A stretch of DNA of 26,737 nucleotides from IMG/VR virus record IMGVR_UViG_2703718837_000009. One strand, written 5' to 3'. The notes under the pieces were generated by a model. That model had not been told where the DNA came from. It did no database searches and saw only the letters and a program-made list of their open reading frames with translations. This stretch comes from a virus. Taxonomy: Duplodnaviria; Heunggongvirae; Uroviricota; Caudoviricetes. Below, in pieces: positions 2,505 through 25,206 of this stretch (positions are counted from its first letter, which is position 1; each line of letters begins with the position of its first letter). Both the position numbers and the translations under genes were made by a program.

Positions 2505-3224
2505 TCAGCTTCCGGAATCCAGATACAGCTCGGTCATTCCGCCGCTGTTTTTCTGCGTCTGTTTCTGCCCTAACTGGACAGCACCGATCGTCATAAACAA
2601 TTCACCACAGCGACCGAGATTCGTGTACGTATTCACATCCTCGTTAATGCGCCCCATGAATGAGAACGGTCGATCAACCGAACAGATAAAGCTGTTCATT
2701 GCCTTGCGTTTCACCCACGAAGCATGGCCGCCATTGTCACCAAGAAAATCCCCGCCCTGCGACATAGCGATGGAAAGAGCAGGTATTGATTCGTAGTACG
2801 CCAGCATTTCAGAAAGGATCGCATCCAGTTTCCTTATCGGAAAATAGGCCTGGTCATAGTTGCGATCCACCCGAAACTGGAACTCGTGATAATCATCATC
2901 GAGCTGAATGAAGTATTTACACCCGACCAGTTTTGCCAGGTCGAAACAGGCATTACGGGCGTAAAAAATTGAGCGGCGGTCACAGAAATTATCGGCTTCG
3001 TCAAAACGACTGGCGATATCGGCTTTGGAAAACACCAGCACCTGTTCACCAAATTCAGCCATGTACTGATGCCGTGTCTTATCTTCATCATCAACAACGA
3101 TAAAAATTTTCCCGGTATAGCCAGCACGACGCAACGTCCGGTAAGTCAGAACTTTGTCCGGTCGCCCGTGAGTCAGAATAAAGGCGCAAAAATCATCACG
3201 CATATTCCTCCTCCTCACCACCAT
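2505..3224 (-). CDS. Hypothetical protein with DxD-type acidic motifs (position of ydaY)
   Basis: 239-aa ORF whose 5' end overlaps the 3' end of the ParB-like gene by 29 nt (alternative ATG at 3203 gives an 8-nt overlap); contains IVVDDED and QLDDDY motifs; function unknown. Confidence 0.6.
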   Translation of the reverse strand: MVVRRRNMRDDFCAFILTHGRPDKVLTYRTLRRAGYTGKIFIVVDDEDKTRHQYMAEFGEQVLVFSKADIASRFDEADNFCDRRSIFYARNACFDLAKLVGCKYFIQLDDDYHEFQFRVDRNYDQAYFPIRKLDAILSEMLAYYESIPALSIAMSQGGDFLGDNGGHASWVKRKAMNSFICSVDRPFSFMGRINEDVNTYTNLGRCGELFMTIGAVQLGQKQTQKNSGGMTELYLDSGS

Positions 3225-3987
3225 GCATGATCTCCACCATGCGCTGCGTCATCCGGACAAATCCATTTTCAATAGCCTGCTGATAATCAATGATCACCAG
3301 CGCCGACTCCTCGAAAAAACACTGAATTTCAGAGGGGGCGTGAGCGTAATAGTCCGCAATTCTGCTGAAATTAAACACCGTGTGACGTTCTGCCGCACAC
3401 AGGAGGAATTTCTCAATATCAGGCTCAAGGGACGCCGAACGTATCCGGCTGATCAGCTCCTGAGTTTTCGTATCGTCGTACAGTTCACTGATATCCGGTT
3501 TACCGCCCGACGGCTCATAAACAGGCGTATCAATTTTCGTCGTATACGGCTCCTCCTCATTTCCTGTACCGGGCAAAACATCCGTCAACAGTTCATCAAT
3601 TTCTGTCGGGATGAAGCCTGTCAGGGAGACATCAAAATCAGCATTGATTAGGTCCGACAGCTCCATCCGCAACAGATCTTCATCCCAGCCAGCATTCATC
3701 GGCAGGCGATTATCTGCCAGGCGGTACGCCTTTTTCTGCTCATCCGTCAGGCCAGACAGAACAATGACCGGAACAGAATCCATTTTGAGCATTTCAGCCG
3801 CCATAACACGACCGTGACCCGCAATAATTTCGCCCTTTTCGTCAATCAGCACCGGATTAGTCCAGCCGAATTGCTTAATACTTTCTACCAGTTGTGCCAC
3901 CTGCTCAGTACTGTGCGTCCTGGCGTTGTGCGCATACGGTGACAATTCTTGTAATGGGCGATAGACTATCTTTAATTTCTCGCTCAT
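3196..3987 (-). CDS. ynaK: ParB-like nuclease domain protein
   Basis: 263-aa ORF with ParB N-terminal/Srx-type motifs (NPVLID..GEIIAGHGR); position matches ynaK next to trkG; full length here. Confidence 0.8.
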   Translation of the reverse strand: MSEKLKIVYRPLQELSPYAHNARTHSTEQVAQLVESIKQFGWTNPVLIDEKGEIIAGHGRVMAAEMLKMDSVPVIVLSGLTDEQKKAYRLADNRLPMNAGWDEDLLRMELSDLINADFDVSLTGFIPTEIDELLTDVLPGTGNEEEPYTTKIDTPVYEPSGGKPDISELYDDTKTQELISRIRSASLEPDIEKFLLCAAERHTVFNFSRIADYYAHAPSEIQCFFEESALVIIDYQQAIENGFVRMTQRMVEIMHGGEEEEYA

Positions 3988-6660: not shown

Positions 6661-7002
6661 TTACTCCTTATGGGCACCGAACTTGTTACCGATGACCCTC
6701 ATTGCCGCACCACGAATAGCATCAACACCAATCAGCCCCACCCCACCACCAATGGCAACAGAAAGTGATTTAGGCCATCCGACATACTCAAGCGCGGATG
6801 CAAAGGTCAGCGTCAGAGCACCACAAAGCAGAATCTCAAGCGTTTTTCGTTTCCAGCCGCCGCCACCGCCAAAATAGGCAATGCGCAAACCAGCCATAAT
6901 AATTGACATAACCACTGCACCCAGCGGCGTATCTCCACGCCACCAACTTTGTAAGAGTTCCAGTAAGTCAGGCCAGGAATGAGGGGCATTGTGCATTTTC
7001 AT
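6661..7002 (-). CDS. Class I holin with dual-start (Met-Lys-Met) motif
   Basis: Small membrane protein directly upstream of R; SD GGAGGTGA precedes ATG-AAA-ATG (7002/6996), like lambda S107/S105; the track's 7011 start is a GTG inside the SD. Confidence 0.8.
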   Translation of the reverse strand: MKMHNAPHSWPDLLELLQSWWRGDTPLGAVVMSIIMAGLRIAYFGGGGGWKRKTLEILLCGALTLTFASALEYVGWPKSLSVAIGGGVGLIGVDAIRGAAMRVIGNKFGAHKE

Positions 7003-7100
7003 AAGCCTCACCTCCGAGAGTTCGGATGGTGCTAAGTGTAAGATTCAGGCTCTCAGGCTTGCTAACAAGAAGTCGAGGATGTTTCCGGAGCCTAACAACG

Positions 7101-7127
7101 AAAAAGCCCCGGGACATGCCGGGGTCA
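7101..7127 (-). terminator. Intrinsic terminator upstream of holin (tR'-like)
   Basis: On the minus strand GACCCCGG-catgt-CCCGGGGC hairpin followed by TTTTT, about 90 nt upstream of the holin start. Confidence 0.5.
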
Positions 7128-7349
7128 GATGGAGTGCCAGATTAAGCTTCTGGCGGTATATACTCGTGTTTGATATCGTTAAATCGCCAAAAGTAACAAT
7201 TCAAACAAAGAGGATTTTTATGTCTGAAAAAAACAAGCCACAAGATGAAAATAAACCTCAGCAACCCGTGGCACCAAAACCAACTCCAACACAAAGTACT
7301 ACAGACTTTGCTACACGTCGTGTTTTTGTTGGAGATTCTGCCGACTCAG

Positions 7350-7919
7350 TCATTGAACATATAAAAAAACAGCCGAGATAAACATCGCCGCTACCGGAGC
7401 AAGGATGGTATACATCCTTGCTTTATCGAGACTCGTGCGGATTTTCTCATTTTCCAACAGTAACTCTCTTGCTGTATCACTCAAGTCAACAAGGCGATAC
7501 CTTCGTATAAGCGGCAATAACTTATCAGGTCCTAAATATCCTGCATCAGCGAATATTTTAAAGCTCGAGGGCTCCATATCCTTATATTTTTCATGATATA
7601 GATGATCAGGAGGGGCATTGATCAGGCCCCTAACCTTCACAGATAAACCAGTACATACCAAGTAAATGGCGCACCATGTCCATAGTAATGTAAATGTGGT
7701 AATTCCGGCGGTGAGAAAATCGAAATTAGTTTTCTGTGTCAGCAATAAAAAAGATGAACCAATTCCAACAATCTGAATGTTCAGAAGTTTGTATCCATTC
7801 TCAACATTGGTTTTGTTAGAAAGATGAATCTCTCGTATCGTCTCTTCCCCTTGTTTTTCAAGATAATCGACGAGCTCATCATCTACTCCTAAAAAATAAT
7901 CTTTAGGTAGTTCTCTCAT
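7350..7919 (-). CDS. Hypothetical membrane protein (moron between Q and holin)
   Basis: 189-aa ORF with GGAGGTGAG SD just before the ATG; three hydrophobic segments; AT-rich; sits in the Q-S moron hotspot. Confidence 0.6.
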   Translation of the reverse strand: MRELPKDYFLGVDDELVDYLEKQGEETIREIHLSNKTNVENGYKLLNIQIVGIGSSFLLLTQKTNFDFLTAGITTFTLLWTWCAIYLVCTGLSVKVRGLINAPPDHLYHEKYKDMEPSSFKIFADAGYLGPDKLLPLIRRYRLVDLSDTARELLLENEKIRTSLDKARMYTILAPVAAMFISAVFLYVQ

Positions 7920-8027
7920 CTCACCTCCACATCCTGTACTGAAAACAATTTTACCAGAATGTCTCGATTCTAGGTATTCCGCCAGGAATCGCGCTCCAGA
8001 AATGAAACATCAGGTTCGCCAGTACCA

Positions 8028-8057
8028 GAAACAACAAAACCCGCTCAATGGCGGGTT
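8028..8057 (-). terminator. Intrinsic terminator downstream of Q-like gene
   Basis: Minus-strand hairpin AACCCGC-cattga-GCGGGTT followed by TTTTGTTGTTT. Confidence 0.45.
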
Positions 8058-8140
8058 CTGGTAAAGTTCATGCGCTTGGTTCGCCTCGCGATACAGCTTT
8101 GCGAAGCATACCGGAATTGAAGCAGTTTATGCGTAAAAAA

Positions 8141-8683
8141 TCAAGCTATTTTTTGAGCAAATGATTCTCGCATGGGAATATATAGGGCATACTCAGCAAC
8201 AGCCAACCAATTAGCAATTCGCTTTTCGCATGTGCTAAAACACCACTCAGGATGTGCATCATTTAGCAATTCAGCCATTTTGCGCTTAGTCATCCCCCGT
8301 CCTTCATACCGTTGCCGGAGGACACTAATCAATCCAGGATGCTCTGCCAGCACCTCACTTATGACTCTATCAATACATAACGCCTCTGCATCAGTACAAT
8401 GCGCCAGCCAGGTCTTTTGCTTGCCATTGATCATCTCTCGCAAAAACGCTTCCAGCTCAGGTTTCTCTATTCCCGCTTTTTTCATCCTGCGCAGGGCTTC
8501 ATTGACGGCTGTTTTCGTCAATTTTTTGGATGCCAGCAACTGGTTAAACATATTTCCCGTCTTACCGCCGCCAATATACGACCAGCGCCCCCACATGCGC
8601 AGTTTTCCCTGAATCCAGACACTTTCCAGCGTGGTGAGACGAAGGTGTTCCCCGCTTTTGCCTGTATTTGTTGGGTAAATCAT
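8141..8683 (-). CDS. Putative late-gene antiterminator (Q-like)
   Basis: 180 aa from ATG at 8683 (SD GGAAGG); immediately downstream of nin-type DUF1364/DUF1367 genes and upstream of the lysis cassette; family assignment from memory. Confidence 0.6.
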   Translation of the reverse strand: MIYPTNTGKSGEHLRLTTLESVWIQGKLRMWGRWSYIGGGKTGNMFNQLLASKKLTKTAVNEALRRMKKAGIEKPELEAFLREMINGKQKTWLAHCTDAEALCIDRVISEVLAEHPGLISVLRQRYEGRGMTKRKMAELLNDAHPEWCFSTCEKRIANWLAVAEYALYIPMRESFAQKIA

Positions 8684-8970
8684 AAATAACCTTCCTTTCT
8701 CCAGATTTCTTGTGTGCGAAAAACACCTTCTGCATGCATCAGGCGTAATTCTTCTTTGGTGTAATCGCTGGTTTTTACCCGCCCGTCGATTAAATCGTGG
8801 CATGAGCTACAGGCAATCGCTGCCTGCATATCGTGTGGTTTTGTCGCTGTTCCGCACGTCCCCGCCAGCCTGTAATGCGCCAGCACAGAGGTTTCGGGAT
8901 TGTGATTGCAGTAGCCAGGGATTCTGATCTGGCACATCTGGCCTTTAGCCGCTTTACGTAAATTCACCAT
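8680..8970 (-). CDS. DUF1364-family phage protein (YbcO-like, Cys-rich)
   Basis: 96-aa ORF resembling DLP12 YbcO (RKAA.G..CQ.RIPG.CN.NPETSVLAH..L.G.CGT.TKP.D...AIACS.CHD); 4-nt overlap with Q start. Confidence 0.7.
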   Translation of the reverse strand: MVNLRKAAKGQMCQIRIPGYCNHNPETSVLAHYRLAGTCGTATKPHDMQAAIACSSCHDLIDGRVKTSDYTKEELRLMHAEGVFRTQEIWRKEGYL

Positions 8971-9569: not shown

Positions 9570-9849
9570 TTCTCAATCTCTCGATGGCGCAGCGCAGCAG
9601 ATGCCAGTTGTTCAGGCTGACGAATAAAGTATAAATAAACTGGCTATGGTGTAAAGCCCCACATAGCATGAACAAACACTACATATCAAATAGCTGGTAC
9701 AAGGATAGAAATACGACATTTATTATTAAAAACGATTAGATAAATTACATTTTAATGTTATGCAGAAGTTCTTTTTTATCATAACATTTCAATAAAAGCA
9801 TTACAGATGCAATCATCCCGTCATCATCAATTATTTAAGGTGGTTAAAC

Positions 9850-9936
9850 ATGGAAAATAACAAGTTCGCACATCTCGCTCCTTTTTTATCCGTAATCCTT
9901 TTCGCTTGTTGTTTTATATGGGCATTATTTTTATAA
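9850..9936 (+). CDS. Candidate small hydrophobic protein (28 aa)
   Basis: ATG 7 nt after AAGGTGG; MENNKFAHLAPFLSVILFACCFIWALFL, one predicted TM helix; in the AT-rich intergenic region; not in the ORF track (below length cut-off). Confidence 0.3.
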   Translation: MENNKFAHLAPFLSVILFACCFIWALFL

Positions 9937-10327
9937 AGTAGCCACATGATAAGTTGCTGGAATCATATTTCCCACTCAAGTCATTAACATTTGATAAGAT
10001 ATATCTAAAAGGACACCTTTACATTATTTATGTGTATATAATTTATTTATATACACAGTAAAGGTATCCTGGGAAAATATTTATCGTTAAAAAATACATC
10101 ATAAATAATTAAGCTGAAATTTCAGAACACAACTAATACACACAATAAGGTTCAGTAACAATAATCTATGTGGACTACATCGAGATTTTTTGATTAAACT
10201 TTAATAACTTATTCCTAACACACAGAATGCATAAACTAAAAGTAAAACAAATAGTTATACGAAAAACAACCATATTTATTATATCTTCTCCTCTAATCAA
10301 CATATCAATTATGTGTTTCATAACAGC

Positions 10328-10375
10328 TTGACATAACCCTCAAAAACACGCATTTATAATGCATGTTTTTGAGGG
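10328..10375 (+). promoter_or_regulatory. Promoter with NsrR-type palindromic operator upstream of the yeaR-like gene
   Basis: TTGACA at 10328-10333, TATAAT at 10355-10360; 39-bp near-perfect inverted repeat 10337-10375 whose core AACACGCATTT-A-TAATGCATGTT resembles the NsrR 11-1-11 consensus. Confidence 0.5.
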
Positions 10376-11483: not shown

Positions 11484-13809
<2,326 letters not shown>

Positions 13810-14110
13810 TTTAATTACCTTATATATCCAAACTCTTAATTTTCTCTTTTTTACCATAGGATTAATCCAAAATAAAGACCTTGTTGACTAAACCCTCATG
13901 TACAAAATGCACACTTACTCAAAAGGATCTGGAGGCAATCTCGACCTCCATGATTTAGTTCCTAGGGATAAGCAGAAATCTAGCACTGGATTAAAATTTA
14001 AAAATAATAATCAATAGGTTATAATGGTTTTTATTCGCATCCATGGGATCTGCTGCTGCCCGCATGATGTTGGATGCGACGGCGCTGGCACGACCTCACC
14101 CGGTGAAACG

Positions 14111-14557
14111 ATGAAACGCGAAAGGGTTGTTCTTCGGGAAGGTGCAGTTGGACTTTCAATCGATGACGTTGCAAAAGAGGCTGGCGTCAGTAAGGCAACG
14201 GTAATGTACGATCATAAGTCAAAGCAAGATTTGCTCAGCGATCTCATCAGTCGCCTTATGCCAGTAGAGGAGGAACGTGTTCAGCAAGCGATAGCGGAAA
14301 GTAATAATACCCCACATCCCGCACTCTATGGGCGAATTATTTCAGCCAGTAATGCTCTCAGTCATACTGAGAGAGCAGTAGTGCTGGCGGTCAGCGAATC
14401 GTTAACTAACGATACGAATATCAGGGACACCATGCGTTCCTGCACAAACAAAGATTTGGATGAGATAAAAAGAGGACCAAAACCAGACGTTGCCGTCCTG
14501 GTATATTTGGCGTTATCTGGTATCTACTGCCAAGAATTTTTTGATTTTTACAAATGA
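14111..14557 (+). CDS. TetR-family transcriptional regulator
   Basis: 148 aa from ATG 14111 (SD GGTGA); N-terminal HTH LSIDDVAKEAGVSKATVMYDHKSKQDLL; divergent from the three-gene operon. Confidence 0.7.
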   Translation: MKRERVVLREGAVGLSIDDVAKEAGVSKATVMYDHKSKQDLLSDLISRLMPVEEERVQQAIAESNNTPHPALYGRIISASNALSHTERAVVLAVSESLTNDTNIRDTMRSCTNKDLDEIKRGPKPDVAVLVYLALSGIYCQEFFDFYK

Positions 14558-24809: not shown

Positions 24810-25004
24810 ATGAGATATGACAATGTTAAACCATGTCCATTTTGTGGTTGTCCATCAGTAACGGTGAAAGCCATTTCAGGATATTACCGAGCGAAGTGTA
24901 ACGGATGCGAATCCCGAACCGGTTATGGTGGAAGTGAAAAAGAAGCACTCGAAAGATGGAATAAACGAACCACTGGAAATAATAATGGAGGTGTTCATGT
25001 ATAA
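24810..25004 (+). CDS. ralR: Restriction alleviation protein (Lar family)
   Basis: 64 aa from MRYDNVKPCPFCGC...; Cys-rich Lar-family pattern. Confidence 0.8.
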   Translation: MRYDNVKPCPFCGCPSVTVKAISGYYRAKCNGCESRTGYGGSEKEALERWNKRTTGNNNGGVHV

Positions 25005-25206
25005 AATTACCGCCACTATTGAAAAGGAAGGTGGCACTCCTACTAACTGGACAAGATATTCAAAATCTAAACTAACGAAATCAGAATGCGAAAAAATGCT
25101 CTCAGGTAAAAAAGAAGCAGGCGTTTCCAGAGAGCAGAAAGTAAAACTGATAAATTTTAATTGCGAGAAACTTCAGTCCTCGAGAATTGCATTGTATTCA
25201 AATTAA
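24997..25206 (+). CDS. ydaC: Small Rac protein YdaC
   Basis: 69 aa from MYKITATIEKEGG; its ATG overlaps the ralR stop. Confidence 0.65.
   Translation: MYKITATIEKEGGTPTNWTRYSKSKLTKSECEKMLSGKKEAGVSREQKVKLINFNCEKLQSSRIALYSN

Follow-up and report, generated by a model that had tools for sequence, protein, structure and literature searches.

SLATT- and PycTM-type '2TM' effectors kill or arrest the infected cell by perforating or depolarising its inner membrane. The SLATT families were reportedly described by Burroughs et al. in 2015. The SLATT effectors of type I cyclic-oligonucleotide-based antiphage signalling systems (CBASS) are approximately 190 amino acids (aa) long (PMC11381338), and in Panoptes a transmembrane (TM) effector is kept off by a constitutive inhibitor until infection releases it (PMC12657218). 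The papers on PycTM, prophages or SLATT found in a literature search describe only cyclase-linked systems. Here we analysed a 26,737-nucleotide (nt) stretch of virus DNA (Caudoviricetes; IMG/VR record IMGVR_UViG_2703718837_000009), hereafter the window, which is a Rac-like lambdoid prophage of Escherichia coli. The window carries a self-contained phage-borne cassette of two genes (positions ~7100-8025), inserted between the module of the antiterminator Q and the late promoter on one side and the holin gene on the other. One gene encodes a 189-aa membrane protein (M189) and the other, convergent with it, a 53-aa protein (S53). The best explanation for the pair, with a probability of roughly 40%, is that M189 is a SLATT/PycTM-like membrane effector that is held in check by its small partner and acts in abortive infection or exclusion. 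The two genes and the parts of M189 are as follows.

7350..7919, minus strand: M189 gene, 189 aa, predicted inner-membrane protein (open reading frame (ORF) call, ATG start, phrog_11870, relatives, ratio of nonsynonymous to synonymous substitution rates (dN/dS), AlphaFold2 (AF2) model, hydropathy).
7924..7928, minus strand: Shine-Dalgarno sequence GGAGG of M189, read from the sequence.
M189 residues, predicted layout from hydropathy, charge and AF2: acidic N-terminal cytoplasmic helix; TM1 45-62; TM2 69-92; cytoplasmic part 93-168 with RRYRL; TM3 169-189.
7220..7381, plus strand: S53 gene, 53 aa (RefSeq annotation; phrog_14506, E 2.4e-31; alternative RefSeq GTG start at 7166).

An earlier note, made from the letters of this DNA without database searches, had described M189 as an AT-rich 189-aa ORF with a strong Shine-Dalgarno sequence. 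This description was accurate: the GC content of the ORF was 0.389 and its ATG was preceded by TGGAGGTGAG. The unannotated family phrog_11870 matched M189 over its full length (E 6e-108). A collection of 5.8 billion proteins contained 104 relatives, almost all of exactly 189 aa and with identities down to 42%, from the Enterobacterales genera Escherichia, Klebsiella, Citrobacter, Serratia, Yersinia, Proteus, Providencia, Morganella, Pantoea and Sodalis. An alignment of 43 relatives had 23 invariant positions, including F9, E21, E25, G52, W80, P104, Y108 and R140. The conserved motifs were DYFLD.DD.L..LE.QGE at the N-terminus, GIGSSF in TM1, P104-x-x-L-Y108, and RRYRL around R140. Against increasingly distant copies, the dN/dS of M189 was 0.065-0.094. 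M189 is a real gene under strong purifying selection and not a chance ORF, so that the conservation on which the earlier note had made its proposal depend was found.

Two of the three hydrophobic segments that had been listed for M189 were strong (residues ~69-92 and 169-189, with a Kyte-Doolittle 19-residue mean of at least 1.6). The third (residues 45-62, LLNIQIVGIGSSFLLLTQ) was only moderately hydrophobic, with a mean of approximately 1.4 by hand, and Gly/Ser-rich. The AF2 model, built on the 43-sequence alignment, had a predicted local distance difference test score (pLDDT) of 83.6 and a predicted template modelling score (pTM) of 0.65. It contained three helices: an N-terminal arm running on into TM1 (residues 14-62), TM2 (68-92) and a second arm running on into TM3 (134-188), while residues 93-133 formed short helices of lower confidence. 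Fourteen Lys/Arg residues lay within 93-168 against one in the 63-68 loop. Because of this distribution (positive-inside rule), residues 1-44 and 93-168, and with them both arms, P..LY and RRYRL, are predicted to be cytoplasmic and the C-terminus periplasmic.

M189 is not a single ORF between Q and the holin, as had been thought. S53, which is annotated in RefSeq and belongs to phrog_14506, is convergent with M189 and overlaps its 3' end by 32 nt. Approximately 95 loci with M189 relatives were fetched, and nearly all intact ones carried a convergent ORF of ~45-56 aa, counted from the conserved start, with a 3' overlap of 9-35 nt. In the alignment, the S53 proteins started with MS(E/Q).NKP, followed by a Pro/Gln/Lys-rich low-complexity stretch, DF(A/S)..R.FVGDSA and a basic tail. 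S53 had no hydrophobic segment, 68% of its residues were polar or proline, and it is probably a small, disordered cytoplasmic protein. Since its dN/dS, measured outside the overlap, was 0.06-0.33, S53 is translated.

The convergent partner was also kept in distant members (~20-30% identity) that were recovered with an exhaustive profile search (100 cluster representatives). A small convergent overlapping ORF was present in the immunity region of a lambdoid phage (P0129), beside the DUF1804 and portal genes of a Mu-like phage (P0154), in a Pasteurellaceae phage (P0206) and after gpD in a P2-like element (P0166); at locus P0194 the overlapping ORF was longer (90 aa). The motif MSE.NKP...DF..R.FVGDSA was common to the small proteins, including the distant ones that were compared. 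Because the pairing persists in very distant members, the unit of inheritance is the 3'-overlapping convergent M189/S53 pair. A co-inherited unit of two genes with a small, labile-looking partner could also be a selfish addiction (toxin-antitoxin-like) module, which would stabilise itself or the prophage and have no role against other phages. The convergent antisense layout recalls type I systems, and the unit moves between unrelated phages. We consider such a module quite unlikely: no toxin-antitoxin family was matched in Pfam, NCBIfam or PADLOC, and this explanation overlaps with the membrane-effector reading because many prophage toxin-antitoxin modules also defend.

The likeness to membrane effectors was found in relatives of M189. 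When 78 diverse family members were scanned singly, four matched the PADLOC PycTM model, and CBASS 2TM effector models received three matches (two to PDLC00700 and one to PDLC00668). The protein of locus P0129 matched PADLOC PycTM with E 1.5e-8 (residues 17-182 on profile positions 7-152 of 160) and a CBASS 2TM effector model with E 4e-5 (profile positions 23-168 of 173). P0129 is a secure member of the M189 family, with a full-length match to the family profile (E 2e-22) and the motifs DDYFLD.DDEMLEYLE, P..LY and LRRYEL. An hhalign comparison of the core family with the P0129 subfamily gave a probability of 100% (E 1e-46). Two members also aligned with SLATT_1 (NF033634) in the same register, residues 18-85 on profile positions 1-72, with E ~0.1 and 12.5 bits against a cut-off of 41; no Pfam SLATT family was among the 25 families listed of the 70 matched by the 78 scanned members. 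From these comparisons, we give roughly even odds that the M189 family lies within the SLATT/PycTM superfamily. No nucleotide or pyrimidine cyclase was adjacent in any of the ~15 contexts examined, and the examined neighbourhoods contained no SMODS, SLOG, CD-NTase or other nucleotide-signal gene.

Similarity to an effector family, the lack of a cyclase and carriage by phages would also suit an anti-defence decoy, an effector look-alike that poisons the oligomerisation of a host 2TM effector or soaks up its signal. M189, however, lies in late or cargo positions and not among early genes, its conservation covers the whole length of the membrane protein and includes a partner gene, and it offered no evidence of nucleotide binding. 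A decoy is therefore highly improbable.

The full Q-M189-holin segment was present in 225 of 5,426 complete E. coli genomes (~4%), and 2,217 genomes matched some part of the Q-to-holin query. The cassette is missing from the Rac prophage of E. coli K-12. Prophages with the same Q family held other cargo in the Q-holin interval, namely tRNA-Thr and tRNA-Gly (L098), a gene for a TolA C-terminal domain (L100), or an ORF6N gene with another convergent pair (L099), for which a search of the PDB returned no relatives. The GC content of the whole cassette was 0.402, against 0.513 for the holin gene, 0.493 for the lysozyme gene and 0.471 for Q (0.40 against 0.47-0.51 in the flanks). In other genera, the cassette was flanked by at least five Q families (phrog_753/DUF1133, 127, 943, 304 and PF06530) and at least five holin families (phrog_126, 1350, 785, 20 and 198), and its recurrent position between Q and holin therefore does not stem from shared flanks. 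The suggestion that M189 is a moron in the Q-to-holin hotspot is well supported by this replacement of cargo at the same junction in related prophages, by the deviant composition, by the variety of Q and holin families and by the cassette's own terminator and -10-like element described below. The cassette was also found after a tail assembly chaperone gene, after a Rha-type regulator (antirepressor) gene and after a DNA methyltransferase gene. Relatives gave 117 hits in IMG/VR viral contigs and occurred in a few deposited phages and in two of 72,556 plasmids (one phage-sized); the cassette is almost confined to phages.

Actinobacillus phage vB_Apl-pPE4 (PP818812.1; locus L106) had an enterobacterial-type lambdoid late region with Hok/Gef and DUF1367/1364/1133-like genes, in which a 53%-identical cassette was followed by a tellurite-resistance gene and then by holins. 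A 47.7-kb E. coli 'plasmid' (CP100067.1) carried an M189 copy of 52.9% identity, which suggests that it and the Actinobacillus phage are the same or related phages.

Two further explanations draw on this distribution. M189 might cause non-lethal superinfection exclusion by blocking the entry of incoming DNA, like P22 SieA, T4 Imm or HK97 gp15, with S53 as a regulator. This role would suit an inner-membrane protein that prophages carry and that hardly occurs outside phages, that seems to have its own promoter, and that is found in cargo hotspots, among them the immunity region, a frequent location of exclusion genes. Nevertheless, no likeness to a described exclusion protein (SieA, SieB, Imm, Sim, gp15, Cor) was found in Pfam, NCBIfam or annotated PHROG families, a large conserved cytoplasmic part and an obligate partner are not features of known entry blockers, and the weak homology points to suicide effectors, all of which make simple entry exclusion rather improbable. 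Alternatively, the cassette could be a conversion factor that serves host fitness in the lysogen through a stress, ion or envelope function, apart from phage conflict. The Q-S site is generally known to carry such cargo elsewhere (nmpC, bor, toxins), and trkG, a neighbouring cargo gene of this prophage, encodes an ion transporter. No transporter or enzyme signatures were found in Pfam or NCBIfam. The phage-borne occurrence in many genera and types of phage, and the antisense partner dedicated to the gene, also speak against a host function, which we hold to be a distinctly poor prospect.

As had been noted from the sequence, a Q-like gene lay upstream of M189 and a holin gene downstream.

8141..8683, minus strand: Q-like antiterminator gene, flanking (Pfam DUF1133, E 5e-109; weak Phage_antitermQ match, 27 bits; phrog_753; RefSeq start at 8683).
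8026..8145, minus strand: Q-linked 120-nt segment, flanking context, recognised by homology across prophages and containing the terminator hairpin 8060-8035.
6661..7002 (also given as 6661-7011), minus strand: lambda-family holin gene, flanking (Phage_holin_3_1, E 2e-27; phrog_126; RefSeq).

The longest ORF of the Q gene encoded 220 aa from an ATG at 8803, and the DUF1133 match began at residue 41. The RefSeq start at 8683 overlaps the stop codon of the upstream DUF1364 gene, and the shorter form of Q is more likely than the one starting at 8803.

Homology with other prophages of this Q family stopped at ~8026-8036, and in some at 8075-8082. A segment of 120 nt, which begins at the Q stop codon and ends shortly after the 8060-8035 hairpin, could be aligned in four prophages with different cargo; the LT-IIb enterotoxin phage SerU has this segment too, preceding tRNAs and a holin gene. 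A lambdoid phage has to keep three things together: Q, the promoter-proximal site at which Q is loaded, and the terminator that Q overrides. Because of this constraint, and because the segment stays with the Q family whatever the cargo, the 8035-8060 hairpin is more likely a tR'-type terminator overridden by Q than Q's own terminator. The two terminator hairpins that the earlier note had recognised were thus both present on the minus strand (8060-8035 and 7124-7107), with their roles probably reversed: the Q-proximal one had been assigned to Q itself and the holin-proximal one had been taken for tR', although the latter travels with the cassette in other genera. The 120-nt segment may be the unit of late promoter and terminator that belongs to the DUF1133 Q family. 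It may contain a weak late promoter (TTGATT at 8144-8139, a 17-nt spacer and TTCAAT at 8121-8116), which agrees with the consensus at 8 of 12 positions and is below the cut-off of the promoter scan. A -10-like TATGCT at 8110-8105 is, we infer, of the kind that causes sigma-dependent pausing. The scan flagged instead TTGGCT-18-TATATT at 8206-8177, inside the end of Q. With either promoter, M189 lies downstream of a late promoter and terminator, like stx, and should be read after induction, besides any transcription from its own element.

This arrangement brings up the most serious rival, a lysis accessory, since the commonest site of the cassette is directly upstream of the holin in the late transcript. 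M189 would then be a late membrane protein that tunes the phage's own lysis, as an auxiliary holin, an antiholin-like timer or a depolariser, with S53 setting the dose. The cassette was directly downstream of Q and upstream of the holin in ~8 of the ~15 lineages looked at, late transcription should read M189 behind the Q-linked promoter/terminator segment, and M189 is a small protein with several TMs, the first of them rich in Gly and Ser. On the other hand, M189 matched no holin family in Pfam or PHROG, and the neighbouring holins came from five unrelated families, which leaves no co-evolving partner. The cassette also occurred far from lysis genes (in the immunity region, in the head region of a Mu-like phage, after P2 gpD and after the tail chaperone gene) and has its own terminator and -10-like element. 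Most related prophages lyse without it, as only 225 of the 2,217 genomes matching the Q-to-holin query had the full segment. We consider a role in the phage's own lysis unlikely on balance.

The upstream regions of both genes could be aligned across loci whose proteins were only ~50% identical, and four conserved non-coding elements were found in the cassette.

7948..7956, minus strand: -10-like element TGGTAAAAT of the extended -10 form, ~30 nt 5' of the M189 start codon (alignment of loci).
7171..7197, plus strand: 27-nt box TGATATCGTTAAATCGCCAAAAGTAAC, 22 nt 5' of the S53 start codon (conservation across loci).
7136..7154, minus strand: hairpin GCCAGA-N7-TCTGGC between the box and the terminator (conserved position).
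7101..7124 (hairpin 7107-7124), minus strand: intrinsic terminator of the cassette, CCCCGG-N6-CCGGGG with a T run (terminator scan).

TAAAAT, usually as GGTAAAAT or a close variant, was found ~30-45 nt 5' of the M189 start in almost every one of the diverse loci, that of P0129 among them; it was absent in Pantoea. It normally lies just 3' of whichever terminator precedes the cassette and may be a promoter of the cassette itself. The 27-nt box was ~20-30 nt 5' of the S53 start across loci and was better conserved than either coding sequence, with a 17-nt core identical in 53 fetched loci. The box occurred once in the window, where no copy was expected by chance, and each cassette had a single copy. 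An inverted repeat, GTTA-N12-TAAC, lies inside the box and had compensatory changes in two lineages. The box is a candidate promoter/operator of S53 or a candidate RNA element. Several specific identities were rejected. The single copy in the window and per cassette ruled out an operator of the main prophage repressor. As a sigma-70 promoter, TTGATA-N18-TAACAA lacks the invariant final T (by eye), and the scan found nothing there. GTTACTT-N17-TCA[A/G]A, read on the opposite strand as a sigma-E promoter, is not well conserved in its AAC (by eye). As a sigma-54 promoter, TGGCAC has no correctly spaced GC (by eye). An Rfam scan of the cassette found no known RNA family.

The hairpin at 7136-7154 also had compensatory changes, with GCCAGT/ACTGGC at L065 and a different GC stem at L005 and L006. 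As we read the alignment, changes of the G.U type in this hairpin keep the pairing on the M189-sense strand alone. The 7107-7124 terminator, which would end M189-sense transcription, was also found behind the cassette in other genera, where its stem pairs covaried. Box, hairpin and terminator recur around the cargo pair of L099, which is a different one, and they therefore form a portable control region. A terminator scan found no plus-strand terminator between S53 and the far end of M189, and the S53 transcript should therefore run antisense through M189; the M189 transcript should likewise run antisense through S53, both readings being drawn from the sequence.

Put together, these elements would give the following mechanism. 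M189 would reside in the inner membrane with both arms and the P-x-x-L-Y/RRYRL region in the cytoplasm, as a distant relative of the SLATT/PycTM '2TM' effectors whose signal synthase was lost or never acquired. In the lysogen, the cassette would be read from its own promoter, and S53, made from the convergent transcript antisense to M189, would keep M189 silent, either as a protein that binds the cytoplasmic arms, or through antisense or convergent-transcription interference, or both. A superinfecting phage might upset this balance by host shut-off, by loss of the labile partner or by a direct trigger. The M189 so released would depolarise or perforate the membrane and be toxic to the cell, and the infection would be aborted, which would amount to a defence phenotype. 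After induction, Q-modified polymerase would also read the cassette.

Several results weigh against this mechanism. M189 itself had no match in Pfam, NCBIfam, PADLOC or PDB sequences, searches of the PDB with the single sequence and with the family profile returned nothing meaningful, and the fold searches retrieved nothing but BAR domains and designed helical bundles, a likeness of long helices and not of ancestry. The check for remote homology and structure that had been proposed for this ORF thus yielded a transitive PycTM/2TM link through P0129, with no match for M189 itself and only generic long-helix folds. The PycTM link is transitive and rests largely on this one bridging sequence. P0129 carries the precomputed Pfam label PF18967, yet it scored 16.1 bits in our own Pfam PycTM scan, below the 27.2-bit cut-off, and a further profile search centred on the P0129 subfamily found no other PycTM-labelled protein. 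S53 had no likeness to any known antitoxin. No canonical sigma-70 promoter was found for M189 or S53 in a consensus scan that requires a -35 element, and TAAAAT has no -35. The literature search found neither the M189 accession nor any paper that mentions the protein. Finally, the commonest site is awkward: directly behind a late promoter, a toxic effector would flood the phage's own lytic cycle unless S53 or timing neutralised it.

Around the cassette, the minus strand carries trkG, the Rz/Rz1 pair, a GH24 lysozyme gene and the lambda-family holin gene, then M189, and then Q and the DUF1364 and DUF1367 genes. The assignment to a Rac-like prophage, made from the sequence alone, was confirmed by trkG and by the RalA small RNA (Rfam). 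Rfam placed the RalA antitoxin RNA of Rac at 25003-25181 and the IS009 RNA family at 723-921, both on the minus strand (225 and 221 bits, in the order listed). Between the DUF1367 and DUF1971 genes, approximately 750 bases (9600-10350) had a GC content of 25-30% and no ORF of at least 40 aa except 10175-10321; this could be a remnant, a regulatory region or the scar of an insertion. The ORF at 3196-3987 (minus strand) is labelled ParB/Srx-like in related genomes, and its first 144 residues matched a PADLOC type II methyltransferase (E 1.5e-38). A second cargo region (11484-13857, minus strand) was a three-gene operon for a SIR2 protein, a non-canonical purine NTP pyrophosphatase and an adenosine deaminase, with a TetR regulator gene divergent beside it (14024-14557, plus strand). 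The SIR2 protein matched the ThsA-type SIR2 of PADLOC (E 6.6e-32), and the adenosine deaminase matched the deaminase part of PADLOC CARF_ADA (E 3e-36). In strain AR_0369, the anti-phage genes iteA/iteS occupy the same slot between the DUF1367 and DUF977 genes, which makes this slot a second cargo hotspot and the SIR2 operon a candidate defence operon.

No paper or curated family was found that describes either M189 or S53. We suggest tentatively, and with more doubt than confidence, that a cyclase-less SLATT/PycTM-like effector and a convergent, disordered partner of ~50 residues make up an undescribed self-regulating exclusion or abortive-infection system, mobile among lambdoid, Mu-like, P2-like and Pasteurellaceae hotspots, with the near-invariant 27-nt box and the hairpin as its switch. 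Should the cassette serve exclusion or abortive infection, membrane-perforating effectors of the Pycsar/CBASS type would also work without a nucleotide synthase, under the control of a tiny partner protein, convergent transcription or both, and temperate phages would trade the unit between cargo hotspots. The system would be compact (~0.9 kb) and present in ~4% of complete E. coli genomes and in many prophages of Enterobacterales and Pasteurellaceae. It would also give a function to phrog_11870 and phrog_14506, to which none has been assigned so far. Even without a defensive role, the strictly conserved 3'-overlapping pair and its 27-nt box would be well suited to studying how convergent transcription regulates the cargo genes of phages.

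Among described systems, the PycTM of Pycsar (PF18967) is alike in being a helical multi-TM protein of ~160-190 aa, M189 having three hydrophobic helices and cytoplasmic helical arms. In contrast to PycTM, M189 has a third, C-terminal TM and a convergent small partner, and is phage-borne rather than located in defence islands. As it has neither an above-threshold match to the model nor an adjacent pyrimidine cyclase (PycC), M189 should not be filed as a Pycsar component. The SLATT/CBASS '2TM' effectors resemble it as stand-alone proteins of ~190 aa with an N-terminal helix and a TM hairpin, whereas the matches of the M189 family to them are sub-threshold or transitive only and no SMODS, SLOG or CD-NTase gene is a neighbour. 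With Panoptes OptE and lambda RexB, the proposed logic is shared, a membrane disrupter that is held off or switched by a partner. There is no sequence relationship to either, and the partner here would be a 53-aa protein or an antisense transcript instead of a nucleotide synthase or sensor protein. RexAB is prophage-expressed cargo next to cI, and this is the same site as that of the P0129 cassette. In type I toxin-antitoxin systems (hok/sok, and ralR/ralA of the same prophage), too, an antisense transcript overlaps the gene of a small product that is membrane-active or toxic; here, the antisense partner S53 encodes a conserved protein under purifying selection, M189 is much larger, and the overlap is at the 3' ends. 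The cassette shares with the Q-S morons (stx, LT-II genes, nmpC in DLP12, tRNA genes) its site 3' of the Q promoter/terminator, its deviant composition and its variable presence, and it differs from them in that the cargo is an uncharacterised convergent two-gene unit with its own conserved signals, and not a toxin, porin or tRNA.

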